Shown here piece by piece: positions 13,572-61,399 of a stretch of 64,000 nt of DNA; position 1 is the first letter of the stretch, and each line of letters opens with the position of its first letter. Below the pieces are notes generated by a model, which saw only the letters and a list, made by a program, of their open reading frames with translations, made no database searches and was not told where the DNA came from. The stretch is from an uncultured Bdellovibrionales bacterium (GTDB taxonomy: Bacteria; Patescibacteriota; Minisyncoccia; Moranbacterales; UBA1568), in assembly GCA_964384235.1 (NCBI GenBank), contig CAYLJX010000001.1:86792-150791 (forward strand). Reading direction: 5' to 3'. Position numbers and translations under genes: made by a program.

Positions 13572-13586
13572 TTTTCCCGCATCCGT

Positions 13587-14558
13587 ATGAGTATCCTCAT
13601 CTTTCTCCTCCAACTGATCGTCGTGCCGGTTCTCTCACCGCTCTCTATCGGCATCGTCCGCAAGCTGAAGGCCCGGATGCAGAACCGCGTCGGCGCGAGC
13701 GTGTTCCAGCCGTACCGGGACCTGTGGAAACTCTTCCACAAAGACGAAGTCATCTCGGAGGATGCCTCCTGGATCTTCCGTTTTTCGCCGTATCTCATCT
13801 TCGCGGTCGTGCTCCTCATCGGGGCGGGGGTGCCCGTCGTGACGGCGCTCACCCCGTCGATCATCGCCGGGGACGGGGCTTCGGAATGGCTCTCGCTCCT
13901 TTCGGCGGGTGATTTTCTCGTCATCGTGTACCTCTTGGCGCTCGCGACATTCTTCCTGGCGCTTGGTGGGATGGAGACAGGGAGCGGTTTCGGAGGATTC
14001 GGCTCCAGCCGTGAGATGACCATGGCGGCGCTGACCGAGGGAGGACTCCTGTTCTCGCTCCTTTCCGTGTCCGTCGTCGCCCAGACGGGCAATGTCATGA
14101 CGATGGTGGAGAATCTCCAGCTCATGCCGTTTCAGGCCTTCCTGCCGCTTATCGTGGCGTTCTTCGCGTTCTACATCGCGCTCCTTTCCGAAAACGGTCG
14201 CTTCCCGGTGGACAACCCGGCGACCCATCTCGAGCTCACCATGATCCATGAGGCGATGATCCTTGAGTATTCCGGCAAGCGTCTCGCTCTTTTGGAGTGG
14301 GCGAGCTGGAGCAAGTTCCTCATCTTCGTCGTTCTGGGTGTCAACCTGTTCTTTCCGTGGGGGGTGGCGACGAGTCTGGAACCGAAAGTACTGCTTCTTT
14401 CAACGGTTTTCTTTGTGCTCAAGACCCTCGTGCTTTTGGGAAGCGTCGCGTTTCTCGAATCGACCATGGCGAAATTCCGCATTTTCCGCGTTCCGGATCT
14501 CCTGTTCACCTCGTTCGTTCTCGGTGTCATCGCCCTTGGCATCATCATAACCTTTTAG
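13587..14558 (+). CDS. NuoH/HycD/HyfC-like membrane subunit
   Basis: 'RKLKARMQNRVGASVFQPYRDLWKLFHKDEV' resembles the NuoH/HycD N-terminal 'RKxxARxQxRxGP...QPxADxxKLxxKE' motif; about 8 TM helices. Confidence 0.75.
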   Translation: MSILIFLLQLIVVPVLSPLSIGIVRKLKARMQNRVGASVFQPYRDLWKLFHKDEVISEDASWIFRFSPYLIFAVVLLIGAGVPVVTALTPSIIAGDGASEWLSLLSAGDFLVIVYLLALATFFLALGGMETGSGFGGFGSSREMTMAALTEGGLLFSLLSVSVVAQTGNVMTMVENLQLMPFQAFLPLIVAFFAFYIALLSENGRFPVDNPATHLELTMIHEAMILEYSGKRLALLEWASWSKFLIFVVLGVNLFFPWGVATSLEPKVLLLSTVFFVLKTLVLLGSVAFLESTMAKFRIFRVPDLLFTSFVLGVIALGIIITF

Positions 14559-14561
14559 TTT

Positions 14562-15218
14562 ATGGAATTTTCCGCTGAACTTTTCTTCTTTCTCGACCTG
14601 CTCGCGTTTCTCGCGGCGATCTTCATGCACCTCGTGAAGAAGAATGCCAACCTGATCCGGCTCTACGTGGCGCAGTCCCTTGCCGTTTCCGTGCTGCTCC
14701 TGGTCATCGGACTGAGCGAGGGGGAACAGAGTCTCATTTGGATCGCGGTGCTCACGTTCGCCATCAAGAGTGTCGCGGCCCCGGCCTTCTTTTTCCGCCT
14801 CATGCGGCGCTTCGGATCGCAGTTCACCGCGAGCAACTACCTCAATACCCCGCTCACGCTCCTCGTCTTGGCGGCCCTCATTATTCTTGCGTATTCCCGC
14901 GTCTTCCTGCCGCTCGGCACGCTCGTTCCGCAGGCGGTCGGGTATCTTTCTCTCACCCTCTCGATCGTCTTCGTATCGATATTCCTCATGATCAATCGCC
15001 GCGGGGCGTTCGCCCAGATGGTCGGCATCCTGTCACTCGAGAACGGTATCGTACTCCTGGCGGCCCTCATCGGTATACAGCAGCCGCTTGCCCTGGAAAT
15101 CGGCATCATCTTCGACATCGTCATCTGGATGGTCATCGCCAACGTGTTCATCGCCATGATCTATCGCCAGTTCGGTTCGCTCAACATCACCGAGCTTAAA
15201 CGTCTCACGGAAGATTAA
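14562..15218 (+). CDS. HyfE/NuoK-NuoJ-like small membrane subunit
   Basis: 218 aa, about 6 TM helices. Its size and operon position match hydrogenase-4 component E / Mrp-like small subunits. No catalytic motif. Confidence 0.55.
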   Translation: MEFSAELFFFLDLLAFLAAIFMHLVKKNANLIRLYVAQSLAVSVLLLVIGLSEGEQSLIWIAVLTFAIKSVAAPAFFFRLMRRFGSQFTASNYLNTPLTLLVLAALIILAYSRVFLPLGTLVPQAVGYLSLTLSIVFVSIFLMINRRGAFAQMVGILSLENGIVLLAALIGIQQPLALEIGIIFDIVIWMVIANVFIAMIYRQFGSLNITELKRLTED

Positions 15219-15223
15219 ACCCT

Positions 15224-16678
15224 ATGCAGCTCACGTTTCTCATCGCTTTGCCGCTTCTCGTCGTCTGTTTCATCGCGCTCCTGCAGGCGAGGCACGTCCG
15301 TTTCATCGAGGCGGCGGTCGTTCTCTCGGCCTTCGTCGAGTTCGGTCTCGCACTAGTGCTTCTCCCGTCGGTCCTCGCGAACGGGGCGGTGGCAGCCACC
15401 TCTTTCTTTTCGCTGGATGCCTTCGGGGCGTTCCTGTCGCTCATCATCGCGCTCGTCGGATTGTTTGTCAGTCTCTACTCCGTCGGGTACCTGCGGGCGG
15501 AAGTGACCAAGGGGATCATCGGTCTGCGGCGCGTCCGCCAGTACTATCTCCTCCTGGAGCTCTTCCTCTTCGCGATGATGCTCGCGGTCGCGACCATCAA
15601 TCCGGTCGTCATGTGGATCGCCATCGAGGCCACGACGCTCTCCACGGCGTTCCTCATCAGCTTCTACAACAAGCCTTCCGCGACGGAAGCGGCGTGGAAG
15701 TACCTCATCCTCAACTCCCTGGGACTGCTCCTCTCCCTCCTCGGAACGCTCATGTTCCTCGCCCTGCCGGAACTGAAAAGCGGCTCGCTCACCTGGGAGA
15801 ACCTGCGTGCCGCGGCGGGTGATTTCCATCCGCTCGCGGTCAAGGTCGCCTTCGTGTTCATCCTGGTCGGGTACGGGACCAAGGCCGGCCTGGTGCCGTT
15901 CCATACCTGGAAGCCGGATACCTATTCCAAGGCGCCGGCCCCGGTCGTCGCGCTGCTTTCCGGTGTCCTTCTCAACGTGGCGTTTTTCGCGATCATGCGT
16001 TTCAAGGGCGTGACGGATGCGGCGCTCCAGTCCGAATTCGCTGGGGGACTTCTCATCTTCTTCGGAACGCTGTCCGTGGCGCTCGCCGCACTCATCATTT
16101 TCATCCAGAAGAACTACAAGCGGCTCCTCGCCTATTCCAGCATCGAACATGCGGGACTCATCGCGCTCGGCTTCGGCTTCGGCGGTATCGGGACGTTCGC
16201 GGCCCTGCTCCACATGTTGTACCACTCGCTCACCAAGGCACTCCTCTTTTTCGGATCAGGAAACATCTTCCTCAAGTACAGCTCCACCAAGATGAAGAAC
16301 GTGACGGGCGTTCTCCAGGTATTGCCGGCGACGACGGTGCTGTTTTTTGCCGGGTTCATCGCGATCGCCGGACTGCCGCCTTTCGGAATATTCGTGTCCA
16401 AGATGCTCCTGCTTTCGGCTGGTATGGGCGAGCATCCGGTCCTGGTGGGTTTCATCCTGCTTTCCCTGGCGGTCGTCTTCTTCGGTTTCTTCCGGCATCT
16501 CACCGCGCTCCTCTTCGGTGAGCCGGCCCCGGGCATCGAGAAGGGGGAGATGCACATACTGACGCTCTTCCCGGTCTTTCTTCTGGCCGGACTGATCATC
16601 GTCTTGAGTTTCCACTTCCCTGCGGAACTGGAGCTGCTTATCGAGTCCGCGGCGGATAGTCTCTCGATCAAACCCTAA
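15224..16678 (+). CDS. NuoN/NuoM/HyfF-like antiporter-type membrane subunit
   Basis: 'GLVPFHTWKPDTYSKAPAPVVALLSGVLLNVAFFAIMRF', 'LLAYSSIEHAGLIALGFG'. Confidence 0.8.
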   Translation: MQLTFLIALPLLVVCFIALLQARHVRFIEAAVVLSAFVEFGLALVLLPSVLANGAVAATSFFSLDAFGAFLSLIIALVGLFVSLYSVGYLRAEVTKGIIGLRRVRQYYLLLELFLFAMMLAVATINPVVMWIAIEATTLSTAFLISFYNKPSATEAAWKYLILNSLGLLLSLLGTLMFLALPELKSGSLTWENLRAAAGDFHPLAVKVAFVFILVGYGTKAGLVPFHTWKPDTYSKAPAPVVALLSGVLLNVAFFAIMRFKGVTDAALQSEFAGGLLIFFGTLSVALAALIIFIQKNYKRLLAYSSIEHAGLIALGFGFGGIGTFAALLHMLYHSLTKALLFFGSGNIFLKYSSTKMKNVTGVLQVLPATTVLFFAGFIAIAGLPPFGIFVSKMLLLSAGMGEHPVLVGFILLSLAVVFFGFFRHLTALLFGEPAPGIEKGEMHILTLFPVFLLAGLIIVLSFHFPAELELLIESAADSLSIKP

Positions 16679-16683
16679 CGGCC

Positions 16684-18279
16684 ATGCCTATGTCTGAAAT
16701 GACGAACACTTCATTGGAACGCTACGGTCTGGGACGGCACCTCTCCGTTCGGAAAGGAAATCTCTCCCTGTTCGACGTGTCGGCGGAGGATCTGCCGGAA
16801 ACGGTGCAGACGCTCATGCACGAGCACAACCTCCCGCTCAAGACCGTCGTAGCGACCGACGAACGCAAAGAGGGAGGAGTCTTCCGTATCCGGTATGTCT
16901 TCGGTCTCCCCAAGCAGGACGGGTTTCTCGTCCCGGTCCTGTCCGTCGATCCGTACGTGCAGAGCTTTCCGTCGCTGGTCTCCGTCGATCAGGAGTTCGC
17001 CGTCTATGAACAGGAGATACAGACCTTCTTCGGACTGGAACCCCTGGGGCATCCGCGTCCCGGTCGCATCCTGCTCCACGGGGAAAACTTTCCTGCGGAC
17101 TGCCATCCGCTTCGGAAGGACTTCGCTTGGAATACGAATGTCGAGGCACCGAAAGAAAAAATCCTTCCGACATTCAGGAAGTTCGAGGGTGAGGGAGTGT
17201 ATGAGATTCCTGTCGGACCGGTCCATGCCGGGATCATCGAGCCGGGACATTTCCGTTTCAGCGTCTTGGGTGAGGAAATCCTCCGTCTCGAGCCGCGTTT
17301 GGGCTACGTGCACAAGGGGACCGAGAAACTATTTGAGACGCTGCCTCTAGATCAGAAGCTCCGGCTTTCGGAGCGTGTTTCCGGTGACAGTTCCTTCCAT
17401 CACGCGCTCGCTTTCGCCCAGGCGATCGAGACGCTTGCGGGAGTCGCGGTGCCGGATCGGGCCAGATTCCTGCGGACGGTGTACGCCGAACTCGAGCGCC
17501 TCGCCAATCATTTCAATGATCTTGCCTTCATCATGCTCGATACCGGTTTCAGCTTCGGTGGCAGTCAGGGGACGCGCCTGCGGGAACGGGTGATGCGGTG
17601 GAACGAGAGGCTGACCGGGAGCCGGTTCCTGCGAGGAGTGGTCGCTTTCGGCGGCGTGACGAAGGATCTCGATGAAAAAATGATCGATGAGCTGCAGGAC
17701 GATCTCGAACTTTTGGAAAAGGATTTCCAGGAAGTGATCGATGCGACCAAGGAGACCGACTCGCTCCTTAACCGACTCAAAGGGACGGGAACGCTCTCAT
17801 CCCAGGTGGCCCGGGATCACGGGGCGGTGGGTATCGCCGCGCGGGCCGTCGGCGAAGAAACGGACGCCCGGGCCGACTATCCCTATGCCGCCTACGAAGA
17901 GGTTCAGTTCAGTGTCCCGACGGAAGAGAGCGGGGACGTCTATGCCAGATATCGGGTGCGTATCCGTGAGGTACACCAGTCCTTCCGTATCCTCAATCAG
18001 GCGCTTACGCTTCTCACTCACCAGCCGGCACCGATCGTCTCGGGATTGCCCAAATTCCCTGCGTCCTCCATGGCGCTCGGGGTCGTCGAGGGATGGCGTG
18101 GAGATATCGTGTATTTTGTGGCGACGGACGCCGAAGGCAACATCTCGCGTGTCAAAGTGCGCGACCCCTCCTTCCTCAACTGGCAGCTTTTCCCGTACGT
18201 CGTGACCAATGACATGGTGCCGGACTTCCCTTTGATCAACAAGAGTTTTAACCTCTCCTATACCGGAAACGACCTCTAG
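16684..18279 (+). CDS. Fused NuoC-NuoD-like / hydrogenase-large-subunit-like protein without NiFe-binding cysteines
   Basis: The N-terminal third is NuoC-like. Then 'VGPVHAGIIEPGHFRFSVLGEEILRLEPRLGYVHKGTEKLFE' resembles NuoD 'GPQHPAAHGVLRL...HRGTEKL'. Positions that hold RxCGxC and DPCxxC in [NiFe] hydrogenases read 'LGYVHKGTEK' and 'DPSFLNWQ'. Confidence 0.75.
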   Translation: MPMSEMTNTSLERYGLGRHLSVRKGNLSLFDVSAEDLPETVQTLMHEHNLPLKTVVATDERKEGGVFRIRYVFGLPKQDGFLVPVLSVDPYVQSFPSLVSVDQEFAVYEQEIQTFFGLEPLGHPRPGRILLHGENFPADCHPLRKDFAWNTNVEAPKEKILPTFRKFEGEGVYEIPVGPVHAGIIEPGHFRFSVLGEEILRLEPRLGYVHKGTEKLFETLPLDQKLRLSERVSGDSSFHHALAFAQAIETLAGVAVPDRARFLRTVYAELERLANHFNDLAFIMLDTGFSFGGSQGTRLRERVMRWNERLTGSRFLRGVVAFGGVTKDLDEKMIDELQDDLELLEKDFQEVIDATKETDSLLNRLKGTGTLSSQVARDHGAVGIAARAVGEETDARADYPYAAYEEVQFSVPTEESGDVYARYRVRIREVHQSFRILNQALTLLTHQPAPIVSGLPKFPASSMALGVVEGWRGDIVYFVATDAEGNISRVKVRDPSFLNWQLFPYVVTNDMVPDFPLINKSFNLSYTGNDL

Positions 18280-28514: not shown

Positions 28515-30542
28515 ATGACTACCCAGTCCGATATCACATTTTTCGCCAAGACGAACTTCCGCAATCAGGAGCGGACGTTCGGTATCAAGACCGACGACCG
28601 ACGACGTCATATGTACGTCATCGGCAAGACCGGCATGGGCAAGACCAACCTCCTGGAGAACCTGGCCATCCAGGATATACAGAAGGGACACGGCATCGCC
28701 TTCATCGATCCGCACGGTGACACCGCGGAAAAGCTCATACGGGCGATTCCCGCGAGCCGCATCAACGACGTCATCTATTTCAATCCGGCCGACCAGGACT
28801 TTCCGATCGCCTTCAACGTGATGGAGAAGGTGAGTCCCGAGTACCGCCACCTGGTCGCTTCGGGTCTCGTCGGTGTCTTCAAGAAGCTCTGGGCTGACTC
28901 GTGGGGTCCGCGGCTCGAATACATTCTCCGAAACGCCATCATCGCGCTCCTCGAATACCCGGGTTCGACCCTTCTCGGCGTGACACGCATCCTCGTCGAT
29001 AAGTCCTACCGTGACCGCGTCGTGGAAAAGATCTCCGATCCGGTGGTGCGCTCCTTCTGGGTGGACGAGTTTTCCAAGTGGGACCCGCGCGTCCTTCAGG
29101 AAGTCATCTCGCCGATCCAGAACAAGGTCGGTCAGTTCCTCTCGAGCGCTCTCATCCGCAACATCGTCGGTCAGACGGTGTCGTCCTTCGACGTGCGCAC
29201 GATCATGGACGAGCGCAAGATCCTCATCATGAACCTCTCCAAGGGCCGCATCGGTGAGGACAACAGCGCACTCCTTGGCGCCATGATGATCACCAAGATC
29301 CAGCTCGCAGCCATGGGGCGTGTCGATATGCCGGAGGAGGAACGCAAGGACTTTTACCTCTATGTCGACGAGTTCCAGAACTTCGCGACGGAATCCTTCG
29401 CCAATATCCTCTCCGAGGCCCGCAAGTACCGCCTCAACCTCGTGCTCGCCAACCAGTACATCACGCAGATCGACGAGAAAGTGCGCGATGCCATCTTTGG
29501 AAACGCCGGGACACTCGTATCGTTCCGCGTGGGCGCCATGGACGCCGAAGCGCTCGAGAAGGAGTTCGAGCCGGTCTTCATGATGAACGATATCGTCAAT
29601 CTGCCGAAGTATCAGATCTACCTCAAGCTCATGATCGACGGTATCGCGGGGGACGCCTTCAGTGCGACGACTTTGCCGCCCATCGCGCTCCAGGATGGGG
29701 GTAACGAGGAAAAGATCATCCGGATTTCCCGCGAGCGCTATGCGACATCCAAGGCGGATGTGGAAGAAAAGATCCGCCGCTGGAGCGGCATGCTCACGCC
29801 GGAGGAAAAAGCGGCGCTCATCGAGACGGTGCAGAGTCCTCGTCCGAGACAGGAGGCACCCAGAAGGATGTCCGAAGAAAGTTTCCGGTCACCTCGTCCC
29901 GAGAGGAAAAACGCACCGCAGACTCCGATGACTCCTCGACCTCAGGCTGCTCCGAAGACCGTGCCGGTCGAAAAGCCTCAGGCGGAAGAGCGTGTCGAAA
30001 CAGGTACCCCGAAAGTTCAGCCGGAAGAACCGGCTCGTCCTGAACCAATTGAAGAAAAAACCGTTTCTCAGGAGACCGAGGAAAGAGTCGAAGAGATTTC
30101 CGGACAGGAGACTCATACGCGACCGCTCCCGGAAGAAGGGAAGCAGGAAGAACGACCGATGTACGCGGCGGTCTGCGCTTCCTGCGGGACCGAGATCGAG
30201 GTGCCGTTCAGGCCCGATGGCAAGCGCCCGACCTTCTGCAAGGACTGCCTGCGGGATTACCAGCGCGCCACTGCCAAGGTTCGTCGCGAGGTCGAAACCA
30301 AGCAGGCACCGGTCTCGCAACCTTCTGTCCAGCGATCATCACAACCGACCGATGTTCCTCCTCGTCCCCGCAAACAGGTGGTGAGGAGTACCTACGTGTC
30401 CGATCAGTCTCCCATCTCGCTTTCCCAGGTACAGCACATCGAGCCCAAGAAATTCAAAGCGCTCAAGAAGCGCCCCAGTGTCAATCTTGACGAGATTCGC
30501 GCGCTCCTCGACGATGCGAAGAAGAAGAACGATGCCGAATGA
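28515..30542 (+). CDS. VirD4/TraD/TrwB-like (type IV coupling protein) or HerA/FtsK-fold P-loop ATPase with a C-terminal CxxC...CxxC zinc ribbon
   Basis: Walker A 'VIGKTGMGKTN', 'IAFIDPHGD', 'IYFNP', 'LYVDEFQNFA', 'EARKYRLNLVLANQYITQID', 'GNAGTLVSFRVG'. Then a long linker and 'CASCGTEIEVPFRPDGKRPTFCKDC'. Confidence 0.65.
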   Translation: MTTQSDITFFAKTNFRNQERTFGIKTDDRRRHMYVIGKTGMGKTNLLENLAIQDIQKGHGIAFIDPHGDTAEKLIRAIPASRINDVIYFNPADQDFPIAFNVMEKVSPEYRHLVASGLVGVFKKLWADSWGPRLEYILRNAIIALLEYPGSTLLGVTRILVDKSYRDRVVEKISDPVVRSFWVDEFSKWDPRVLQEVISPIQNKVGQFLSSALIRNIVGQTVSSFDVRTIMDERKILIMNLSKGRIGEDNSALLGAMMITKIQLAAMGRVDMPEEERKDFYLYVDEFQNFATESFANILSEARKYRLNLVLANQYITQIDEKVRDAIFGNAGTLVSFRVGAMDAEALEKEFEPVFMMNDIVNLPKYQIYLKLMIDGIAGDAFSATTLPPIALQDGGNEEKIIRISRERYATSKADVEEKIRRWSGMLTPEEKAALIETVQSPRPRQEAPRRMSEESFRSPRPERKNAPQTPMTPRPQAAPKTVPVEKPQAEERVETGTPKVQPEEPARPEPIEEKTVSQETEERVEEISGQETHTRPLPEEGKQEERPMYAAVCASCGTEIEVPFRPDGKRPTFCKDCLRDYQRATAKVRREVETKQAPVSQPSVQRSSQPTDVPPRPRKQVVRSTYVSDQSPISLSQVQHIEPKKFKALKKRPSVNLDEIRALLDDAKKKNDAE

Positions 30543-34463: not shown

Positions 34464-37115
<2,652 letters not shown>

Positions 37116-47730: not shown

Positions 47731-47807
47731 AGAATCCGTTTGCTCTGGTGGTGAATCTTGTCTACAATGGAGGTGAAAGCCGGCCGGTTGGTCGGTGGTT
47801 TGTCTAT

Positions 47808-50264
47808 ATGATGAGCGAGAATTTTTTCCTTTGGTACTACACGGACGGGATGCGACAGGCGTTCATGCTTGTGAAAAATGCCGTGCGTTTCGTCATTTTC
47901 CGTTTCCATATCGTCCCGCTTCTCTTCACGCTTTTTTCACCGTGGAAGCGCGATATCGAGTTCCGGACATGGCGGGGACTGCACCCGCTCAAGTCCCTGA
48001 GTGCATTGTTCGGAAACTTCATCTCGCGTTTCTTGGGAATGATCGTCCGTCTCGGGGTGATCGCTTTCGGGACGGTCCTGCTGATCGCGACGTGCTGTAT
48101 CGCGGCCACTTTGTTTCTCGCGTACGCGCTCTCGCCGCTTTGTATCAGCATCGGCCTCATCTCGTTTTTCATCAATCCGATCCTGGGGTCCGGACTGCTT
48201 CTTTTCGGGGCGGTCGGATTTCTTATGGCACTCTTCGGGTTCGTCTCCCGGAAACAGACGGAACCACAGACGTACGATGTGACGATCCTCAAGGAGCGAC
48301 GGTGGTTCCAGCGGGTGCTTGCACGGCTCGGTATCGATCGGAAGACACTCGATGCATCGGTCTTGAAGGATACCGAGACTCTGGTGAAATATCTCGAGGG
48401 TCTGGGGATGTCCCGGACGCTCTTCGAACAGGTGGTCCGTATCGAGCGGGAAGCGTTCGAACGTCGCGACCACAAAGGACGCTTTTGGCTGTGGGAGAAT
48501 CTCGAGAAGTATCCGCCTATCGGCAAGGGGTGGGCTTTCGCTTATACTCCTCACTTGGATCGGTATGTGCTCGACCTTTCGGCGGGCGATCCGACGGAGT
48601 ACGGTCGGTACGAACTTGTCGGACGACAGGAGGAATTCCGCGTCGCCAAACTTATCCTGGAACGTCCGGTACAGAACAGTTTCCTCTTGGTCGGCGATCC
48701 GGGACTGGGCAAGAAGACGTTCGTCCATTACCTGGCACGGAAGATCCGGGAGAACGCCATGGCCGGCAGTGTGATCGGTGACGCGCGGGTTCTCCTCTTC
48801 GATCTCGGTCGGGCGGTCGGTGACGCGACGAGCCATGATGTCGATCCGGAACATTACCTCCGACCGCTTTTTCATGAGGCGGCCTACGCTGGAAACGTCA
48901 TCCTCGTCATCGATCAGATCGATCTCTTTCTCGGGGGAGATCCCGTTCATCCGAATCTCGCGCCGCTCTTCTCGGAATATCTGGCATTGCCGACGTTTAG
49001 GGTGATCGGGATGGCGACGACTGAGCGCTATCACGCTCTGGCCAAGACTGACGAACAAGCGCTTAAGTTTCTTGAGACGATCTATCTGCGCGAACCGGAG
49101 CCGGACGAAACGCTGGCGATCCTTCTGGATAACCATGAGCGACTCGAGCGGAAAAGGGTTGTTTTTACTCTTGCGGGGCTGCGATCGATCGTCGAGACGG
49201 CCGGCCGGTATGATTGGGAGGTGCCTTTTCCGGAACGCGCCCTCGACCTGGCTCAGGAAGTCCTCCTGTTTTTCCGTGAACGGCCGGAGCCCTTCGTGAC
49301 ACCGGAAACGGTGAATGCCTTCGTCTCGCTCAAGACGGGCGTGCCGACCGGAGCGATCGGCGGCGACGAGAAGGAAAAGCTCCTTCATCTCGAGGAGCTC
49401 CTGCACGAGCGTATCGTCGGACAGGAAGAGGCGGTGAAACAGGTGGCGGAAGCCATGCGCAAGGCACGAGCCGGCTTCGGGAACGACAAGAAGCCGCTCG
49501 GGAGTTTCTTGTTTCTTGGTCCGACCGGCGTCGGGAAGACCGAGACAGTGAAGGCCTTTGCGGAGAGCTATTTTGGTGACGAGGAGAAGATGATCCGGCT
49601 CGATATGAGCGAGTACCAGAACCCGGGCGCCGTGGAGCAACTCATCGGTTCCCGGGCGCTTGGGTTGCAGGGGACGCTCACTAGTGCCGCCAAGGAACAG
49701 CCGTTCTCGATCTTGCTGCTTGATGAACTCGAGAAGGCCTATCCTAAAGCGCTTGACCTCTTCTTGCAGATCCTGGATGAGGGGTTCGTGACGGACGCCT
49801 TTGGTGAGAGGGTGAGTTTCCGCAATATGATCATCGTCGCCACCTCCAACGCCGGGGCGCCGCTCATCCGGTCGCTCATCGCAGAGAAGGCACCGCTTGC
49901 GGACATGCGCAGACGGGTACTCCAGGAGATCGTGGACAAGAATCTTTTTCGGTTGGAATTCCTCAATCGTTTTGATGGTGTGATCTTCTTCGCGCCGCTT
50001 CAGGAGAATGAACTGAAACAGGTGACAGAACACCAGTTGGAACGGTTCGCCGAGCGTCTGAAAAAGGAAAAGAACATCACGCTCCGGTTCGCGCCCGGCG
50101 TGGTGGACGCGGTGGTGACGCACGGGTATGAGCCGGAGTTCGGGGCCCGTTCCGTCTTCCGGTATATCGAGGATACGATCGAGGACGCGGTCGTCAAGAA
50201 AATCATTGCCGGCGAGATCGCGTCGGGAGGCGAGCTTCTTATTTCCACTGACGAGTTCAATTGA
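47808..50264 (+). CDS. Membrane-anchored two-domain Clp/Hsp100-like AAA+ ATPase (N-terminal 4-TM segment; degenerate D1 Walker B; canonical D2). Alternative GTG start at 47748.
   Basis: TM helices at about residues 20-160. D1 'LLVGDPGLGKKTFVHYLARKI' with 'VILVIDQIDLF'. D2 'HERIVGQEEAVKQVAEAMRKARAGF...GSFLFLGPTGVGKTE', 'ILLLDELEKAYPKALDLFLQILDEGFVTDAFGERVSFRNMIIVATSN'. Confidence 0.7.
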   Translation: MMSENFFLWYYTDGMRQAFMLVKNAVRFVIFRFHIVPLLFTLFSPWKRDIEFRTWRGLHPLKSLSALFGNFISRFLGMIVRLGVIAFGTVLLIATCCIAATLFLAYALSPLCISIGLISFFINPILGSGLLLFGAVGFLMALFGFVSRKQTEPQTYDVTILKERRWFQRVLARLGIDRKTLDASVLKDTETLVKYLEGLGMSRTLFEQVVRIEREAFERRDHKGRFWLWENLEKYPPIGKGWAFAYTPHLDRYVLDLSAGDPTEYGRYELVGRQEEFRVAKLILERPVQNSFLLVGDPGLGKKTFVHYLARKIRENAMAGSVIGDARVLLFDLGRAVGDATSHDVDPEHYLRPLFHEAAYAGNVILVIDQIDLFLGGDPVHPNLAPLFSEYLALPTFRVIGMATTERYHALAKTDEQALKFLETIYLREPEPDETLAILLDNHERLERKRVVFTLAGLRSIVETAGRYDWEVPFPERALDLAQEVLLFFRERPEPFVTPETVNAFVSLKTGVPTGAIGGDEKEKLLHLEELLHERIVGQEEAVKQVAEAMRKARAGFGNDKKPLGSFLFLGPTGVGKTETVKAFAESYFGDEEKMIRLDMSEYQNPGAVEQLIGSRALGLQGTLTSAAKEQPFSILLLDELEKAYPKALDLFLQILDEGFVTDAFGERVSFRNMIIVATSNAGAPLIRSLIAEKAPLADMRRRVLQEIVDKNLFRLEFLNRFDGVIFFAPLQENELKQVTEHQLERFAERLKKEKNITLRFAPGVVDAVVTHGYEPEFGARSVFRYIEDTIEDAVVKKIIAGEIASGGELLISTDEFN

Positions 50265-51485: not shown

Positions 51486-52708
51486 AATTGCTTCTTATCA
51501 AAATCGGCAAGGCGTGGCATACGCTCCGACGCGAAGGGTTGGTCCGGGGCGGCCGGCGTGTCCTGACCGCGTTTCTCGCGCTCTTCGGACGGGTGAAGCC
51601 GGGCGATATCCTCTTCATCACGGGCGGGGTGGGGGACAGCGCGCGGTATCGATGCCAGCACGTGGCGGAAGAACTCGAACAGCATGGTTTTCGGACGGCG
51701 GTGACGGTGCAGGATAATCCGTTCCTTGCTTCGTATGCCGATCGGTTTTCGATTTTTGTGTTCCATCGAGTTCTCTTTACGCCGAGTGTCGCCAAACTTG
51801 TCGGACGGATCAAGGAGAAACAGAAAACGATCATCTTCGAAACGGACGATCTCGTCTATGACAAGGCGTTCCTTCAGCATATGGACTACTTCAGGCAGAT
51901 GAATACGTTCGAGCGCAAGCTCTACGAGAACGGCGTGGGCGGGGAGATCTTGGCCGATCCGTACGTGGAGGTCTGCACGACATCGACGACGTACCTCGCG
52001 AACAAGCTGCGGGAGAAAGGCAAACGGGTGTATATCGTTCCGAACAAGCTTTCAAAAGAGGACGTTGCAAATGTTGAAAAGATCCTCTCTTCTTGTCATT
52101 CCGACCGTAGTGGAGGAATCTCGAGATCCCTCGGCGATGCTCGGGATGACACGGTAGTGCGCGTCAGCTATCTTTCCGGCACGCCGAGTCACAACAAGGA
52201 TTTCGCGACGATCACGGACGCGCTCGCGACGCTTTTGGAAAAGTATCCGAACCTCCGTCTGGTGCTGGCTGGGCCGCTCGATACCGATGATCGGTTGCAG
52301 CATTTCGCCTCACAGATCGAGCGCCTGCCCTACGTGCCGCGTCGGGAATACTTCGGAAATGTCGCCCGGATGGATATCAATGTCGCACCCCTTGAGATCG
52401 GCAATCCCTTTTGTGAGTCGAAGTCCGAGCTCAAGTTTTTCGAAGCAGGTATCTGCGGCGTGCCGACGGTGGCCGCGGCGACACAGACCTTTCGTGAGGC
52501 GATCCGGGACGGCGAGGACGGGTTCGTCGCGAGCAATACCGAAGAATGGCGAGACAAGATCGAACGATTGATCGTCGATGCTGATTTACGAAAGACAATG
52601 GGGCAGAGAGCCCGCGAAACAGCCTCTGAAAAATACACGACGACAAGCGCGAAGAACGAAGCATACTATGAATATCTAAGATCATCGGTTAACCGGCTAA
52701 AAAGTTAA
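51482..52708 (+). CDS. Glycosyltransferase (GT1/GT4-like C-terminal domain)
   Basis: 'LRLVLAGP', 'INVAPLEIGNPFCESKSELKFFEAGICGVPTVAAATQTFREAIRDGEDGFVA'. The start ATG overlaps the upstream stop (ATGA). Confidence 0.7.
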   Translation: MKLLLIKIGKAWHTLRREGLVRGGRRVLTAFLALFGRVKPGDILFITGGVGDSARYRCQHVAEELEQHGFRTAVTVQDNPFLASYADRFSIFVFHRVLFTPSVAKLVGRIKEKQKTIIFETDDLVYDKAFLQHMDYFRQMNTFERKLYENGVGGEILADPYVEVCTTSTTYLANKLREKGKRVYIVPNKLSKEDVANVEKILSSCHSDRSGGISRSLGDARDDTVVRVSYLSGTPSHNKDFATITDALATLLEKYPNLRLVLAGPLDTDDRLQHFASQIERLPYVPRREYFGNVARMDINVAPLEIGNPFCESKSELKFFEAGICGVPTVAAATQTFREAIRDGEDGFVASNTEEWRDKIERLIVDADLRKTMGQRARETASEKYTTTSAKNEAYYEYLRSSVNRLKS

Positions 52709-52721
52709 CAGGTTAACAGGT

Positions 52722-53117
52722 TTGAATATGAAGATCAACCGATTTGAAGATTTGAATGTATGGAAATCGAGTGTTGGTTTAACAAAGACGATTTATGATC
52801 TTACAGCAAAAGAAAAGTTCTCTAGAGATTTTGGTTTGCGAGATCAGATTCGGAGAGCAGTAGTCTCGATAAGTTCGAACATCGTAGAAGGATTTGAAAG
52901 AAGTAGTAATAATGAGTTTATACGATTTTTAAAAATAGCTAAGGGTTCGGCAGGAGAAGTAAGGAATCAACTTCATATTGCTTATGCGGTAGGATATATG
53001 ACGGAAAAGGAATTCGACGAGGTTTATGAGGAAGTTGAACTGTTGACGAAGCAAATTGGAGCATTCGTGAATTACTTGGAAAGCAAGAGGCTATCCGGAG
53101 AATTCGTAAGAAAATAA
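52722..53117 (+). CDS. Four-helix-bundle protein (23S-rRNA-intervening-sequence protein family), low-GC
   Basis: 131 aa 'FEDLNVWKSSVGLTKTIYDLT...VSISSNIVEGFER...AKGSAGEVRNQLHIA' matches the family signature. Flanked by GTTAAC-rich spacers. Confidence 0.65.
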   Translation: MNMKINRFEDLNVWKSSVGLTKTIYDLTAKEKFSRDFGLRDQIRRAVVSISSNIVEGFERSSNNEFIRFLKIAKGSAGEVRNQLHIAYAVGYMTEKEFDEVYEEVELLTKQIGAFVNYLESKRLSGEFVRK

Positions 53118-53163
53118 AAACCCGTTAGCCTTTTAACTTGTTAACTGATTAACTGAAAATTAT

Positions 53164-54120
53164 ATGAAGGTATTGATAACGGGAGGGGCGGGTTTTATCG
53201 GTACGGCCATCGCCAAGAAACTCATCGATCGCAAGGACAAAGTCGTACTCATCGACAATTTCAACGACTATTACGATCCGCAGTTGAAGCGGGACCGCAT
53301 CAAGAAATTCCTCAAAGGATACGAACATGGGTTCAAGCTGTACAAGGGTGATATCCGCGACCGGAAATTTCTCGACAAGGTCTTCACGACGGAGAAGCCG
53401 GACAAGGTGATCCATCTTGCGGCCATGGCCGGGGTGCGCTATTCCCTGACCAATCCGGCCCTCTATGCCGACGTCAACGTCATGGGAACGACCAACCTCC
53501 TCGACATGGCGGTGAAGTACAAGGTGAAGAACTTCGTCTATGCGTCCTCGTCCTCGGTCTATGGCAACAGCACCAAGGCGAAATTCTCCGAGACGGACAA
53601 CGTCGACCAGCCCATCTCGCCCTACGCCGCGACCAAGAAGGCGACGGAACTCATCGCGCACGTTTACAGCCATATCTACAAGCTTCCGACCACCGGCCTG
53701 CGGTTCTTTACGGTGTACGGTCCGTGGGGCCGCCCGGACATGGGCGTCTTCAAATTCATCGAGAACATCATCCGCGGCAAGGAGATCGAGCTCTTCAACC
53801 GCGGCAAGATGCGGCGAAACTTCACCTATATCGACGACATCGTCTCAGGAACGATCACGGTGCTTGATACGAATCTGTCATGTGATGTCATGAACATCGG
53901 CGGCGATCGGGACGTGGAACTCTCCGAGTACATCGAGGCCGTCGAGAAACATACCGGCAAGAAGGCCAAAAAGAAGATGATGCCGATGCAGGCCGGGGAC
54001 GTGGAACGCACGGTAGCCGACATCCGCAAGCTCCGCAAGCTCGGCTGGAAACCGACCACGCGCGTCGACGAAGGCGTCCGCCAGTTCGTCGCCTGGTACA
54101 AAGAATATTACAAAGTATAG
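53164..54120 (+). CDS. NAD-dependent sugar-nucleotide epimerase/dehydratase (UDP-glucuronate/UDP-glucose 4-epimerase-like SDR)
   Basis: 'MKVLITGGAGFIGTAIAKKL', 'YASSSSVYG', 'YAATKKATELIAHVYSHIYKLPTTGLRFFTVYGPWGRPDM'. Confidence 0.9.
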   Translation: MKVLITGGAGFIGTAIAKKLIDRKDKVVLIDNFNDYYDPQLKRDRIKKFLKGYEHGFKLYKGDIRDRKFLDKVFTTEKPDKVIHLAAMAGVRYSLTNPALYADVNVMGTTNLLDMAVKYKVKNFVYASSSSVYGNSTKAKFSETDNVDQPISPYAATKKATELIAHVYSHIYKLPTTGLRFFTVYGPWGRPDMGVFKFIENIIRGKEIELFNRGKMRRNFTYIDDIVSGTITVLDTNLSCDVMNIGGDRDVELSEYIEAVEKHTGKKAKKKMMPMQAGDVERTVADIRKLRKLGWKPTTRVDEGVRQFVAWYKEYYKV

Positions 54121-54161: not shown

Positions 54162-54797
54162 ATGATTATGACCAAAAAAATCGTCATTTTAGCTGTGCTT
54201 ACGATCCTTCTCGTTGGAGGTGTTTTATGGTTTGTCATTGTCCGGGAAACGAAGGATGCATCGCCGATCGCACAAGATACTCCTTCATCTAAGGTTGTAC
54301 CTACAGATGATAGGCAGAACATTTTCGAAAAGTATCCTCAACATGTCGAGGTTATTCCTGGAACGGACGAAGCTTGGTACAACATTCCGGAGCTTGGTAT
54401 CCGTATGAAACTCAACAAAGAGTTTGCTGAAGGTTTGATTTATCAGTACATTCATGTAGTCACTAATGATTTGCAAGAAGAATGGGACGCTACGCATTTT
54501 TCGACGAAATCACTAACTGCCATTGATAAAGGATGTTCTCCAGAAGAAGGTAGGCCTTTAGGAACTATCACAAAGACAAAAGGTGATGTTAAGGAATTAG
54601 CAAAGACAGATGTATTCTATTCTTCAAGACTCGATGATATTATCCAGATTGGAGAATATTACTTTATGTGGACGGGCCCGCAAGCAACTTGTTGGGATCC
54701 TAAGAATGATGAAGCGGTACAAAAAGTACGTGGACCTGAGATTTATAAAGCTATTCAGGATGGTGTAAAAACTATCCAATTGATTCCATCAAAATAA
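54162..54797 (+). CDS. Hypothetical membrane-anchored protein, low-GC
   Basis: N-terminal TM 'IVILAVLTILLVGGVLWFVIV'; ~40% GC; no family recognised. Confidence 0.4.
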   Translation: MIMTKKIVILAVLTILLVGGVLWFVIVRETKDASPIAQDTPSSKVVPTDDRQNIFEKYPQHVEVIPGTDEAWYNIPELGIRMKLNKEFAEGLIYQYIHVVTNDLQEEWDATHFSTKSLTAIDKGCSPEEGRPLGTITKTKGDVKELAKTDVFYSSRLDDIIQIGEYYFMWTGPQATCWDPKNDEAVQKVRGPEIYKAIQDGVKTIQLIPSK

Positions 54798-54952
54798 AAG
54801 TTGTAGTTAGGAAATAAAACAAACGGAAAGGAGCTCATTTTTATCGGGGAACACCCTGAGCTAAGTGATTTCCAACCGTTTGTTTTTCTTAGGAAAGGAT
54901 AATCGGTCTGAGTTCGTTCACAAATCTATCAACTCTTTCGAAGGAATGCATC

Positions 54953-56080
54953 ATGTTGCGACTCATCTGTATTTTGCTGTTCTGTTTTGCTTCTGCTGTC
55001 TATGCAGCCGAGGATCCAAACGACACCTACTTGCACCGGACAGACTGTCCAGCAGTTGGGCCGTCAAAACCTACAGATACATCTTCCAACTTCTTCAAGT
55101 GCCAATGCACCTCGTACGTGGCCCATAAGTTGAATGAAAAGTGGGGGAATAGCAACCCGCGCTTCACGAATCAGTACTACGGATTTAGCGCATGGAGCGA
55201 TGCTTGGAAGTGGCTCGGCCGAGCCAGAGACGCCGAAATAGGTGTCACTGGTGGCAGGGACAACTTCACCTGGGATGTGCCAAGCTACAATGCAATTTTT
55301 CCCGGGGATGTAGCCTTATGGGAAGTGCATAGTGGCGGCTATTCGGCCGGGCACGTTGCCTACGTCGAGGCTGCTGGAGCCGATACAAGTGGCAATGGTG
55401 TTGCTTGGGTGACAGTCTCTGAATATAACATCACATCGTTTGAGTTCAGTCGACGCACTCTCTACAAGAGCCAGCATCCTAACCCTCGATTCCCTGACTA
55501 CTTCCTTCACATCGATAAAGACCGTGCTTACTGTCTTGCTAATCCATCCGTCGGTAACTGCCCGAGTCTTATTGCTGGGCAGCAAGTGGCGAACGGACCC
55601 GGAAGCAAAGTAAGTGGTATCGGTGGCAGTTCCGACACCTTCAACCTCAAGCTGGATTACGATATCATCGATCCGGTGACGGGGAATGAGTATCAGGCTG
55701 GGGCGGTCACACTCAAAGCCGGTCAGAACCTCAAGCACCAGGTCAAGGTCAAGGCCGAGAACGGTAACGCGGCAGCACACATGCGTCCCGGGAAGGACAA
55801 GATCGAGATCGACTACTACGTCAGGGTCGGCTTAGGAGAATGGACGTGGTTTCATCGCGGGTACATTACGGCCGACAAACTTACCAATGGCAACACCATT
55901 CAGGAAAGTGCCTATGCGACGCTCCCACAAGGAGCTTCGGAGGTCTCGTTCAAGGTGAAAATCGACGCTGAGGACGAAGCGTATGAATCCAACGAAGGCG
56001 ACAACTGGTCCCGGATCGAGACGTTCCAGGTGTTTGATCCAGCCTGGCTTGTTCCGATCATCAATCTCATTCTCAACTAA
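54953..56080 (+). CDS. Secreted CHAP-domain (cysteine/histidine amidohydrolase-peptidase) protein with a C-terminal beta-rich domain
   Basis: Signal peptide 'MLRLICILLFCFASAVYA'. CHAP Cys box 'FKCQCTSYVAHKL' and His box 'GYSAGHVAYVE'. Confidence 0.6.
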   Translation: MLRLICILLFCFASAVYAAEDPNDTYLHRTDCPAVGPSKPTDTSSNFFKCQCTSYVAHKLNEKWGNSNPRFTNQYYGFSAWSDAWKWLGRARDAEIGVTGGRDNFTWDVPSYNAIFPGDVALWEVHSGGYSAGHVAYVEAAGADTSGNGVAWVTVSEYNITSFEFSRRTLYKSQHPNPRFPDYFLHIDKDRAYCLANPSVGNCPSLIAGQQVANGPGSKVSGIGGSSDTFNLKLDYDIIDPVTGNEYQAGAVTLKAGQNLKHQVKVKAENGNAAAHMRPGKDKIEIDYYVRVGLGEWTWFHRGYITADKLTNGNTIQESAYATLPQGASEVSFKVKIDAEDEAYESNEGDNWSRIETFQVFDPAWLVPIINLILN

Positions 56081-56091
56081 CTGAAGGAGAA

Positions 56092-56433
56092 GTGAACATG
56101 AAAACGAAGACACTTGCAAAGGCTCTCATGGCCATGGTTCTGGTGCCTACGGTGGTCTATGCCTACGACTGGAGTGTTGGTGGTGCGGCGGTCACGATAC
56201 TCGAACCGTCGTACATGCCGGGACATATCGCTTTTCAGATTGACAAGGGCAGTGCCGCTTGTCCGTCTGGGACATGGCTGGTGTATTTCGGTCAAGGATC
56301 GACTACTGAGACGCAACAGCAGAATGCGCGTGTAACGTATGCCACGCTGATGTCGGCTATGCTGTCCGGAAAGAAGGTTAGCATCTACGGGGCGAACAAT
56401 TGCTACACCGACCACGTCCATTTGCTTCCGTGA
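56092..56433 (+). CDS. Small secreted Cys-containing protein (113 aa), paralog A
   Basis: Signal peptide 'MKTKTLAKALMAMVLVPTVVYA'. Shares '...SGKKVSIYG...C' with the next ORF. Confidence 0.5.
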   Translation: MNMKTKTLAKALMAMVLVPTVVYAYDWSVGGAAVTILEPSYMPGHIAFQIDKGSAACPSGTWLVYFGQGSTTETQQQNARVTYATLMSAMLSGKKVSIYGANNCYTDHVHLLP

Positions 56434-56498
56434 CGGACAATCGGATGGTTACCGTTCTGGCTTGTCCCATTGCTGTAAATGAAAGAGAGGAAAGTGGA

Positions 56499-56846
56499 AT
56501 GAGAAAGCTTGCAATGGCAGTGTCGATGCTCTGTAGTGCGATGTTCTGTGGTACGGCTTCCGCCGACCTTCCGGGTGACTGGAGCGGCGCGGTCACTATC
56601 ACCGCGATCAATATGGGTGGCACGGGCGAGTTCGTCATCGTCGCTCCCAATGCCCCCAATCCAGGCAGTTGCGGTGGCTACTACCGGGTGTACTTCAACT
56701 CGACCATGGGCGTTACCACCAACTTCGGACTCGAGATGTTTCACAAGCAGGCGGCATCGGCGCTGGTGAGCGGCAAGAAAGCCTCGATATTCCGAACGAA
56801 CGACACCTACTGCTACGTCGGCTATATCCAACTGAACAGCAACTGA
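56499..56846 (+). CDS. Small secreted Cys-containing protein (115 aa), paralog B
   Basis: RBS 'gagaggaaagtggaATG', signal peptide 'MRKLAMAVSMLCSAMFCGTASA'. Shares 'G.C...Y..VYF...', 'SGKKASIF' and '..C' with paralog A. Confidence 0.5.
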   Translation: MRKLAMAVSMLCSAMFCGTASADLPGDWSGAVTITAINMGGTGEFVIVAPNAPNPGSCGGYYRVYFNSTMGVTTNFGLEMFHKQAASALVSGKKASIFRTNDTYCYVGYIQLNSN

Positions 56847-56862
56847 TGACATCTGATCATCA

Positions 56863-56900
56863 CCGGGAGTCCTTATGCGAGGGCTCCCGTTTTCTTTTTA
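56863..56900 (+). terminator. Rho-independent terminator
   Basis: 'cgggagtccttatgcgagggctcccg' followed by 'ttttcttttt'. Confidence 0.6.
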
Positions 56901-59983: not shown

Positions 59984-61399
59984 ATGACGAAAACAAAAAC
60001 AAAGGAAAAGCGTCTGAGCATGCTCTCGGCGCTGATGATCGTTTTTCTGTCGTTCGGCGCGTTCGTCGCCGCGGCTTCTATCGTGAGTAAGAATCAGTCA
60101 GGGACGACACTTTTCTCGCTTGCAAGCGATGGAGAGGATGATGATGACGATGAAGAGGATGACGATGAGGACGAGGACGATGATGAAGATAAAGACGAGG
60201 ATGAGGACGATGATAAGGCTGAAAAGGAAGCCAAGAAGAAGGCTGAAAAGGAACGCGAGGCTGCCAAGAAAAAATTAGAGAAGGAACGTGAGGCCGCCAA
60301 GAAGAAAGCCGAATGGGAGCGGGAGGCCGCCAAGAAGCAGACTGAGCTTCTGAAAGCGGGTTCTTCTTCGGAAATGGAAGTCGAAGGTGATGAACTTGAA
60401 GACGTGGACGAAGCGGAAGATGAGGATGAGAACGAGGGTGGCGACCACGGTATGTTCAAGGACCGCTTGAAGACGATCGAGAAGCTTCAAAAAAGGATAG
60501 CGGAGGCCGAGAAAGAGATCGCCGAGAAGCAGGCCGAAGGAGTGGACGTATCGGCAGCCCTTGCCCGTCTCGCTTCGGCCAAGGCTGCTGTCACGGGTGT
60601 CGAAGGGGCGTTTGATGCGAGCAATCTCGATGAAGTGAAGCGTTTGAGTCTGGAGGCTCAGAAGCTCGCGCACTTTGCCAAGGAAAAAGATCTCCATGAT
60701 GCCAAGGAAGTGGCCAAGGATACCCAAAAGGTAGGGAAGCGCATCGCTCAGGTCAAGGAGAAACTCGCGAAGCTCAAAGCTCTCGGAGGCGACGCGACTT
60801 CCTTTGACTCGCAGCTTGCGGCGGTGGAACAGTCGTTTGCCGATGCCAAGATGCTCATCAGTCAGGGAGGGACGGATCTCACGAACGGTCTCGCGATGCT
60901 TGAGAGTGCGGAACGGGCGGCCAAGAATCTCAAGGACAACATCGAAAGCGCCATCCTGGCGCTCGGTGGCGAGGATGACGAGTTGGATGACGACCACAAG
61001 AGCGAGGTAGCGTTGTTCGTGGAGCGTCTGCATGAGATCGCGGACATCGAGGAAGGCGGTATCGGGGCACAGGTGCGCGAAGTGGCCAAGGCTCAGAACG
61101 CTTCGGCCGAGAAGGTGAGTGTGCTCATGAACGATACCGAGGAAAGGGGTGATGTGGCGGAATTCGTCCTCGGACCGAATTACGACGATCTGGACGATAT
61201 CAAGGAAGAAATCGCTGCTAATAGCGTGCGCATCGATATCCTCACCCGTGCCGCGGCGCAGGTGGAGGACGCGGACGTGCAGACGATGCTCGCCGAGCAG
61301 GCGGAAGCCCTCCGTCAGGAGAACCTGAAGCTCCAGAACTTCGTCGACTCCAAGACGGAACAAGCGAGCCTCTTCGGTTGGTTCCTCCAGTTGTTCTAA
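59984..61399 (+). CDS. Membrane-anchored/secreted poly-acidic coiled-coil protein (D/E tract, 'EKEREAAKKK' repeats, long alpha-helical region)
   Basis: Signal anchor 'LSMLSALMIVFLSFGAFVAAASIV'. Then about 45 consecutive D/E, three K/E repeats, and ~350 aa with heptad-like periodicity. Confidence 0.55.
   Translation: MTKTKTKEKRLSMLSALMIVFLSFGAFVAAASIVSKNQSGTTLFSLASDGEDDDDDEEDDDEDEDDDEDKDEDEDDDKAEKEAKKKAEKEREAAKKKLEKEREAAKKKAEWEREAAKKQTELLKAGSSSEMEVEGDELEDVDEAEDEDENEGGDHGMFKDRLKTIEKLQKRIAEAEKEIAEKQAEGVDVSAALARLASAKAAVTGVEGAFDASNLDEVKRLSLEAQKLAHFAKEKDLHDAKEVAKDTQKVGKRIAQVKEKLAKLKALGGDATSFDSQLAAVEQSFADAKMLISQGGTDLTNGLAMLESAERAAKNLKDNIESAILALGGEDDELDDDHKSEVALFVERLHEIADIEEGGIGAQVREVAKAQNASAEKVSVLMNDTEERGDVAEFVLGPNYDDLDDIKEEIAANSVRIDILTRAAAQVEDADVQTMLAEQAEALRQENLKLQNFVDSKTEQASLFGWFLQLF

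Follow-up and report, generated by a model that had tools for sequence, protein, structure and literature searches.

AB5 toxins (cholera toxin and LT-I, the LT-II enterotoxins, pertussis toxin, SubAB, EcxAB and typhoid toxin) combine an enzymatic A chain that ends in a helix with small B proteins, which are exported by the general secretory (Sec) pathway and adopt an oligonucleotide/oligosaccharide-binding (OB) fold with a long central helix. The A gene is directly followed by one or more B genes, as is seen in the ctxAB, stxAB and subAB operons, and to our knowledge every AB5 toxin described is a weapon aimed at eukaryotic cells. Described modes of AB5 evolution include the swapping of heads on a common platform and the possession of two B genes, and the review that describes them names no peptidoglycan hydrolase as an A subunit, the word occurring there only once, in a citation on typhoid toxin secretion (PMC11610972). 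The closest functional precedent for an enzyme-plus-ring peptidoglycan hydrolase is PlyC (one PlyCA and eight PlyCB), in which the CHAP-bearing catalytic subunit docks by a helical domain on an octameric ring of small carbohydrate-binding subunits (PMC10604209). Here we describe a locus of three plus-strand genes at positions 54953-56846 of a 64,000-nucleotide stretch of bacterial DNA (the window; from contig CAYLJX010000001.1). The first gene encodes a predicted peptidoglycan hydrolase, and the other two encode small secreted proteins, called small1 and small2 below. We propose that the products of the locus form a secreted peptidoglycan hydrolase of two components (A and B) and of AB5-like architecture, in which a helix in the tail of the enzyme docks on the B-like small proteins, and we hold this proposal in an even balance of belief and doubt.

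The hydrolase is assembled from a signal peptide, a CHAP head, a linker, a CARDB-like beta-sandwich and a C-terminal helix, in that order. Its head scores 31.6 bits against the Pfam CHAP model PF05257 (gathering cut-off 26), and Cys52 (in QCTSYV), His134 (in GHVAYVE) and Asn159 (in SEYN) are at least 95% conserved among 49 CHAP homologues. The head is therefore predicted to be a peptidoglycan amidase or endopeptidase, in agreement with the initial annotation of this DNA, which had recognised a secreted CHAP hydrolase with its Cys and His boxes and a signal peptide that is also evident by inspection. That annotation did not include the C-terminal tail helix, the CARDB-like domain or an upstream anchored gene that tracks the head. 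In the AlphaFold model (mean predicted local distance difference test score (pLDDT) of 85.3, from a 50-sequence alignment), linker residues 210-225 are disordered, the sandwich spans residues ~231-361, and a terminal helix (residues 363-374) follows this last globular domain. The match of this protein to Pfam CARDB (PF07705) lies below threshold (18.4 bits, cut-off 22.7), whereas relatives pass it, as with the homologous domain of locus L017 at 26.9 bits, and many homologues carry precomputed PF07705 matches. Fold matches of the sandwich are to PDE6D, RhoGDI, the Wzt carbohydrate-binding domain and NPC2 beta-sandwiches. A sequence search of solved structures with the hydrolase gave no match.

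We found 64 homologues of the hydrolase, and those with organism names are mostly from Candidatus Moranbacteria or Moraniibacteriota; no relative was found in the viral contig collection. The N-terminus is alike among homologues, the KIDAEDEAYESNEGDNW..TF motif at the end of the sandwich is near-invariant, and the CARDB-like domain is common to CHAP, M23 and headless relatives. In 14 of the 64, a Peptidase_M23 domain is joined to the same sandwich, with no CHAP match. A third head type is present in L019 (3167-3973; also in L020), where a Cys-rich head that is neither CHAP nor M23 precedes the CARDB-like domain, a short WLIPIL tail and then a small2-type gene. Relatives of about 620 amino acids were considered as carriers of a fused B-like domain, which was rejected because the extra sequence consists of further CARDB domains. 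Reading the tail as a lipoprotein, sortase or membrane anchor was also rejected, as there is no lipobox or LPXTG motif and the hydrophobic run covers only 10-12 residues before acidic residues begin.

A link between the hydrolase and the small proteins emerges when its C-terminus is compared across loci. A total of 30 loci were gathered, five of them (L001-L005) being further copies of the locus in the window and the rest carrying relatives of the hydrolase or of the small genes. Directly after the near-invariant motif, the tails of the 64 homologues fall into discrete classes, and the variable part of the A chain amounts to 10-16 residues. The window protein belongs to class 1, a hydrophobic helix of the form ..WL[IV]P[IL][IL]N[LF]IL[ED]. 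Other helical tails are charged and amphipathic (FYRRSLKKLLELTED, class 2, and YYRTGIHRILRTED), are short (..WLIP[IL]L), or take the forms FNPA[VL]FQTILNLLL[NE]D and ..LLPVLQ..L... A non-helical tail is rich in Pro and Thr (..LTITVT[DN]), and the forms of about 620 amino acids have two further CARDB domains in place of the tail.

The type of the small gene that comes first downstream is predictable from the tail class. Class 1 tails, found on CHAP heads (the window, L013 and L015), on M23 heads (L006 and L030) and on one head that is cut off by the contig end (L018), have the DUF5992/small1 type first downstream. A class 1 variant, ..WLVPIILQILEE (L007, CHAP), has its own divergent two-Cys type ('ANYGG..'). 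The short tail precedes the small2 type on a CHAP head (L006), on the third head type (L019) and in L021/L022, where the head is not on the contig. Charged tails on CHAP (L014/L025 and L023) and M23 (L017 and L029) heads are followed by a four-Cys protein of 107 amino acids (type C), and the FNPA.. tail on CHAP (L026) and M23 (L027) heads by a protein of 110 amino acids (type D). The tail ..RVLLPVLQTILND (L028, M23) is followed, after a gap of 370 nucleotides (nt), by a small2-like type. No small gene lies downstream of the Pro/Thr-rich tails (L008, L010 and L012, all CHAP) or of the two extra CARDB domains (L011, CHAP).

These associations were evaluated with 17 non-redundant helical-tail loci. 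Whenever two loci have the same tail class, their first small genes are of one type (21 of 21 pairs; permutation p <= 1e-5). Pairs with the same head (CHAP or M23) have matching types in 6 of 43 cases, which represents no association, and three tail classes are found with CHAP as well as M23 heads, each with its small type unchanged. A small secreted gene is present downstream in 17 of 17 helical-tail loci versus 0 of 4 others (the three loci with beta-strand tails and the locus with added CARDB domains). Since a variable tail always travels with a particular small protein and is absent without it, the simplest reading is that the tail serves as a docking peptide for this protein. For the second small gene the association is looser: a 'SYGGY' four-Cys type occurs there after both class 1 and class 3 tails, and in the window this place is taken by a small2-type gene. 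The class 1 tail of the window (PAWLVPIINLILN) includes the short WL[IV]PI motif that is paired elsewhere with small2-type proteins; judging from this motif, small1 and small2 could be alternative or mixed partners of one A chain.

The small proteins are paralogues that share 33% identity over 91 amino acids (E 3e-6), an SGKK(V/A)SI(Y/F) motif and two cysteines (C55 and C102 in small1 numbering) that are invariant or nearly so in a 93-member family alignment. Orthologues on other metagenomic contigs are 61-79% identical, and the ratio of nonsynonymous to synonymous substitution rates (dN/dS) is ~0.16 for small1 and ~0.11 for small2, values that are approximate because dS is saturated. The conserved orthologues and low ratios indicate that both are real genes under constraint. 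The initial description of the pair as tandem secreted paralogues with common cysteines is borne out, whereas the accompanying description as otherwise divergent and rapidly evolving holds only in part: orthologues are, by their substitution pattern, under purifying selection, and what varies between loci is which small type is present.

A word-index search returned only a handful of close small-protein relatives. A profile of small1, small2 and their relatives, searched exhaustively against 1.84 billion cluster representatives, matched 137 of these at E <= 1e-3, nearly all of them 105-130 amino acids long and aligned over their full length. The family layout is a signal peptide, a YDW-type start, a Cys, a helix and a second Cys. 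Pfam DUF5992 (PF19454) is matched by 24 of the 93 aligned family members (best E 1e-28); small1 scores 17.3 bits (E 0.005), under the cut-off of 23.8, and small2 gave no match to it in the Pfam scan. By way of intermediate sequences, these profile searches place small1 and small2 in a broad DUF5992-like family, whose named members come from Proteobacteria (Rhodocyclales and Microbulbifer). No mention of DUF5992 or PF19454 was found in the literature searched, and tblastn with two DUF5992-like proteins gave no match (P0103 against plasmids and phages, P0084 against plasmids). The profile also matched two longer proteins, P0079 (2066 amino acids) and P0202 (573 amino acids), in 11 and 7 short stretches, respectively; these could be repeat proteins with a PNAPNPGS-like motif or low-complexity artefacts.

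The AlphaFold2 model of small1 has four strands, a 21-residue helix and two further strands, which is the order found in AB5 B subunits. In a Foldseek search of the Protein Data Bank (PDB) with this model, 43 of the top 50 matches were AB5 B subunits, a count that is inflated by the redundancy of the cholera toxin and LT B subunits (CTB/LTB) in this database, with several distinct B families matched all the same (LT-IIb, LT-IIc, LT-I, cholera toxin, pertussis toxin chains, PltB and SubB). Template modelling (TM) scores were ~0.5, and the reported probabilities were near 1. PlyCB was absent from the top 50, and the small proteins matched none of the toxin families in Pfam. With moderate confidence, the small proteins therefore resemble AB5 B subunits at the level of fold, a resemblance that the initial annotation had marked as speculative and that the predicted strand-helix order and the Foldseek matches now favour.

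The arrangement of the genes likewise resembles that of an AB5 locus (Table 1). The small1 gene begins 17 nt after the hydrolase stop codon, with a ribosome-binding site (GGAG) ~9 nt upstream. The true starts of small1 and small2 lie slightly 3' of the mechanical starts of their open reading frames (ORFs), and the same starts are used in independent gene calls on five other contigs with an identical locus. A strong intrinsic terminator (dG -19.9 kcal/mol, z -3.25 by RNA folding) lies directly 3' of small2, and no plus-strand terminator was found between the three genes. Given this tight spacing and the single terminator, we read the genes as one operon. All three products carry Sec signal peptides, with cleavage sites by inspection between VYA and AE, VYA and YD, and ASA and DL, respectively. 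The signal peptides of small1 and small2 have the n-h-c layout, and inspection of both sequences revealed no lipobox. Adjacent A and B genes with a common terminator and Sec export of both components, as expected of an AB5 system, are thus found here.

Table 1. Features of the A-B hydrolase locus and of the gene upstream of it (window positions).
Feature	Position	Strand	Description
Upstream anchored-protein gene	54162..54797	+	211 aa; N-terminal membrane anchor; motif YPQHVEVIPG..WYNIPELGIRMKLNK
Hydrolase gene, 'A' component	54953..56080	+	375 aa; predicted secreted modular peptidoglycan hydrolase
Hydrolase Sec signal peptide	54953..55006	+	MLRLICILLFCFASAVYA, cleaved before AEDP; read by inspection
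CHAP catalytic domain	55094..55429	+	Residues 48-159; Cys52, His134, Asn159
CARDB-like beta-sandwich	55628..56035	+	Residues ~226-361; ends in KIDAEDEAYESNEGDNW..TF motif
Variable C-terminal tail	56036..56077	+	Residues 362-375, DPAWLVPIINLILN; predicted helical; proposed docking element
small1, first 'B' component	56098..56433	+	111 aa; ATG start 56098; two Cys; DUF5992-like
small2, second 'B' component	56499..56846	+	115 aa; ATG start 56499; two-Cys paralogue
Intrinsic terminator	56864..56899	+	11-bp stem, then TTTTCTTTTT; closes hydrolase-small1-small2 operon

Directly upstream of all 11 CHAP loci examined, regardless of tail, lies a gene for an anchored protein of ~200 amino acids of the 'YPQHIE..WYNIPE' type, whereas all six M23 loci have a PsbP_2-like 'DWKTYRNE.YGF' anchored protein in this position. 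The representative in the window matched no Pfam or NCBIfam family, and its matches to tetratricopeptide repeat (TPR) structures in the PDB were short and were rejected as spurious. The upstream anchored protein is probably a partner of the catalytic head, as either an immunity factor or a regulator. In sequence terms, the locus is thus a three-part modular system composed of a head-specific anchored protein, an exchangeable head on a conserved scaffold, and a cassette formed by the 10-16-residue tail and one or two small secreted proteins with the proposed OB fold.

The genomic settings of these modules are diverse. In L006, a CHAP module and an M23 module are separated by ~1.2 kb and both have a small gene of their own downstream, and a single genome bin (CAYLPD01) carries four paralogous CHAP loci (L008, L010, L011 and L012), of which three have beta-strand tails and one has extra CARDB domains. 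Neighbours of related modules vary and include restriction systems, a serine recombinase, a Fic protein, ScpAB and SecY. For example, a serine recombinase, a type I restriction enzyme, a DUF4011 helicase with DUF2130 and a Fic protein occur among L023/L024 (5537-8002), L025 (1-3132) and L026 (3411-4349), and these neighbourhoods look like mobile elements or defence islands.

The coupling of tail and small gene, the B-like fold, the A-then-B gene order, the Sec export of all parts and the terminal helix of the A chain together suggest an AB5-like holoenzyme. The small proteins, which would be OB-fold proteins of the AB5 B-subunit type, may form a ring-like oligomer after Sec export. This oligomer would bind the tail helix of the A chain, as the A2 helix is bound in the pore of a B pentamer, and would also bind a surface glycan, thereby targeting the hydrolase to the cell wall. 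Its most probable target would be another bacterium, the host or prey of what is probably a Patescibacteria (Moranbacteria-like) episymbiont, and the upstream protein would probably serve the catalytic head as an immunity factor or regulator. A role against other bacteria is favoured by the several paralogous modules, the polymorphic cassettes and the variable, often mobile- or defence-like neighbourhoods. Several paralogous modules in one bin and paired modules on one contig also resemble the gene dosage of a weapon. The host-cell-wall attack module that was suggested for this locus at the outset is plausible.

Comparison with described systems clarifies which features are shared. Like AB5 toxins, the locus has an A gene directly followed by B genes, two of the latter, an A chain that ends in a helix, unrelated heads that are swapped on one platform, and small Sec-exported proteins whose modelled fold includes the long central helix. 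However, the head is a peptidoglycan hydrolase (CHAP here and M23 in relatives), whose substrate is the bacterial wall rather than a eukaryotic cytosolic target, and for this reason we do not class the locus as a classical AB5 toxin. The small proteins also differ in having no sequence similarity to known B families and in placing their Cys pair at positions other than those used in CTB/LTB; moreover, a pentamer and pore insertion are only proposed here, and the producer is apparently a member of the candidate phyla radiation. PlyC, although similar to the proposed complex as an enzyme with a ring, has its docking domain in the centre of PlyCA and not at the C-terminus. As a phage endolysin, it works from inside the cell or upon external addition, and it is not known to use Sec export.

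Two further groups share part of this organisation. In CdiA-CT/CdiI and Rhs-CT/immunity systems, a conserved N-terminal region and a near-invariant motif likewise precede a variable C-terminus that is exchanged together with a cognate small gene. In contrast to these polymorphic toxins, the variable C-terminus here is a helix of 10-16 residues rather than a toxin domain, the catalytic domain is N-terminal and swapped independently, and the small partner is secreted and does not track the catalytic domain. Lysostaphin, zoocin A and endolysins resemble the hydrolase by joining an M23 or CHAP domain to a separate specificity module, and in some relatives of the window protein two extra fused CARDB domains substitute for the tail and small gene. 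The presumed targeting module of the window hydrolase is instead a separate polypeptide that would be recruited by a short tail.

Several observations weigh against the A-B proposal. The small1 model has a pLDDT of 71.6 from an alignment of only nine sequences, and the other four models reach 45-59. Foldseek matches of the model in the PDB are weak (E 4e-3 to 0.1), with nothing at E <= 0.001, and their support is further weakened by the commonness of the OB fold and the CTB/LTB redundancy in this database. No sequence similarity to solved B subunits was detected, as a profile search of PDB sequences gave signal-peptide matches only. Homology among all small-gene types, for which hhalign gave probabilities of 83-98% that were inflated by signal peptides, was rejected after these were removed: the L028 type is clearly homologous (97.7%) and types D, L007 and L026b are marginal (52-65%), but homology to small1 is unsupported for types C (9%) and S (5.5%). 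In addition, the tail codons lie ~20 nt from the small gene, and a crossover in the conserved CARDB-like domain would move the tail and small gene together without any contact between their products. This physical linkage makes the association suggestive rather than proof. With regard to the target, the window module sits within a surface-polysaccharide cluster (four family 4 glycosyltransferases (GT4), an epimerase and a Wzz-like protein), so the enzyme may have a self-directed role. Finally, no report linking AB5-type systems with Patescibacteria was found in the literature searched, where nothing relevant appeared either for AB5 toxins with peptidoglycan hydrolases or for Patescibacteria with CHAP proteins.

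Alternative explanations can be weighed against the same data. Hydrolase genes followed by a small secreted gene are typical of effector-immunity pairs, and the signal peptides, the conserved Cys pair and the exchange of small-gene types as cassettes between loci would suit secreted immunity or inhibitor proteins that guard the producer's own wall, comparable to the periplasmic Tsi immunity proteins of type VI secretion system (T6SS) amidase effectors or to the PliC/MliC lysozyme inhibitors. We nevertheless judge this explanation, which was also the effector/immunity reading of the initial annotation, to be very improbable. An immunity protein should follow the catalytic domain, whereas the small type tracks the C-terminal tail and, in three tail classes, stays the same whether the head is a cysteine peptidase (CHAP) or a zinc metallopeptidase (M23). 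Furthermore, CHAP-headed hydrolases that lack a helical tail have no small gene, and the fold matches are to toxin B subunits and not to known inhibitor folds. The upstream anchored gene does follow the head, and hence is the better immunity candidate.

A purely genetic link, in which the secreted small proteins would stand alone as lectin- or adhesin-like proteins or fill a different role, while the tail helix of the hydrolase would serve another purpose such as membrane or self-association, is unlikely in our estimation. Linkage over ~20 nt alone can explain why tail and small gene travel together, the second small gene is not tied to a tail class (the 'SYGGY' type occurs with classes 1 and 3), and proteobacterial members of the DUF5992-like family exist. 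Yet presence and absence of tail and gene are perfectly coupled (17/17 versus 0/4), and 10-16 variable residues right after a near-invariant motif fit a recognition peptide borne on a cassette. The tails are also too short to span a membrane and have acidic ends, and those of class 2 are charged and amphipathic. A different possibility retains the A-B architecture but directs it at the producer's own wall, as a housekeeping autolysin for growth or cell separation that is held on the cell's own polysaccharide. CHAP and M23 enzymes are common as autolysins, and the location of the window module inside a surface-polysaccharide cluster would fit such a function. This version is quite unlikely, however, because the gene neighbourhood is not conserved among related modules, paralogous modules that differ in tail and small gene are found in one bin and near each other on one contig, and the swapping of polymorphic cassettes typifies conflict systems more than it does housekeeping genes.

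The assignment of the producer rests on the names attached to the nearest homologues. The taxonomic labels of relatives conflict, with Candidatus Moranbacteria/Moraniibacteriota accompanied by one Nitrososphaera and by some genomes labelled Bdellovibrionales, and mislabelling or mis-binning probably affects some of these bins. Of 20 other ORFs in the window that were scanned against Pfam, none matched an outer-membrane or other lineage-diagnostic family.

Other features of the window were recorded in passing. The upstream anchored gene has a guanine-plus-cytosine (GC) content of ~0.40, compared with ~0.56 nearby. Low-GC patches (0.38-0.44 in a region of ~0.56) at 52600-53400 and 54200-55000 cover this gene and a gene for a 23S-rRNA-IVP-type four-helix-bundle protein (52722-53117), which suggests that these parts of the glycosyltransferase cluster are mosaic or were inserted. 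Just downstream of that cluster, the product of an ORF of 471 amino acids (59984-61399) has a hydrophobic segment at its N-terminus, a long run of Asp and Glu residues, and repeats rich in Lys and Glu (KKAEKEREAAKKK...). A gene set at 11514-18279 that resembles those for Mrp antiporters or group-4 hydrogenases, with two Proton_antipo_M proteins and a fused Complex1 30-kDa/49-kDa protein, seemed unexpected for a presumably reduced genome. The window also carries a gene for a protein like the TrwB/TraG type IV coupling proteins with a C-terminal treble-clef zinc finger (28515-30542), and two ClpB-like AAA+ chaperone genes within 15 kb (34464-37115 and 47748-50264), the second taken from the gene call on L001, a copy of the locus.

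What would be new here is the proposed AB5/PlyC-like architecture, applied to a wall hydrolase that a bacterium secretes and whose heads and tails can be exchanged. More tentatively, and with doubt prevailing, we can envisage an antibacterial AB5-type family, of which this locus would be the first example, in which interchangeable heads (CHAP, M23 and others) would be joined through an exchangeable helix to a cognate ring of OB-fold proteins of the DUF5992 superfamily. Such complexes might allow ultrasmall episymbionts to recognise specific host bacteria and breach their walls, with the upstream protein providing self-immunity, and the widespread proteobacterial DUF5992 proteins might be B-like lectins that have gone unrecognised. 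If the A-B proposal is correct, AB5 architecture would extend into interactions between bacteria, with an enzymatic subunit that cuts peptidoglycan, and the uncharacterised DUF5992 family would gain a testable role. The three-part modularity suggests a plug-and-play design that could be used in engineering targeted lysins, as has reportedly been attempted with PlyC. A secreted hydrolase with exchangeable targeting subunits would offer a concrete and clonable candidate for the means by which members of the candidate phyla radiation recognise and open their hosts.

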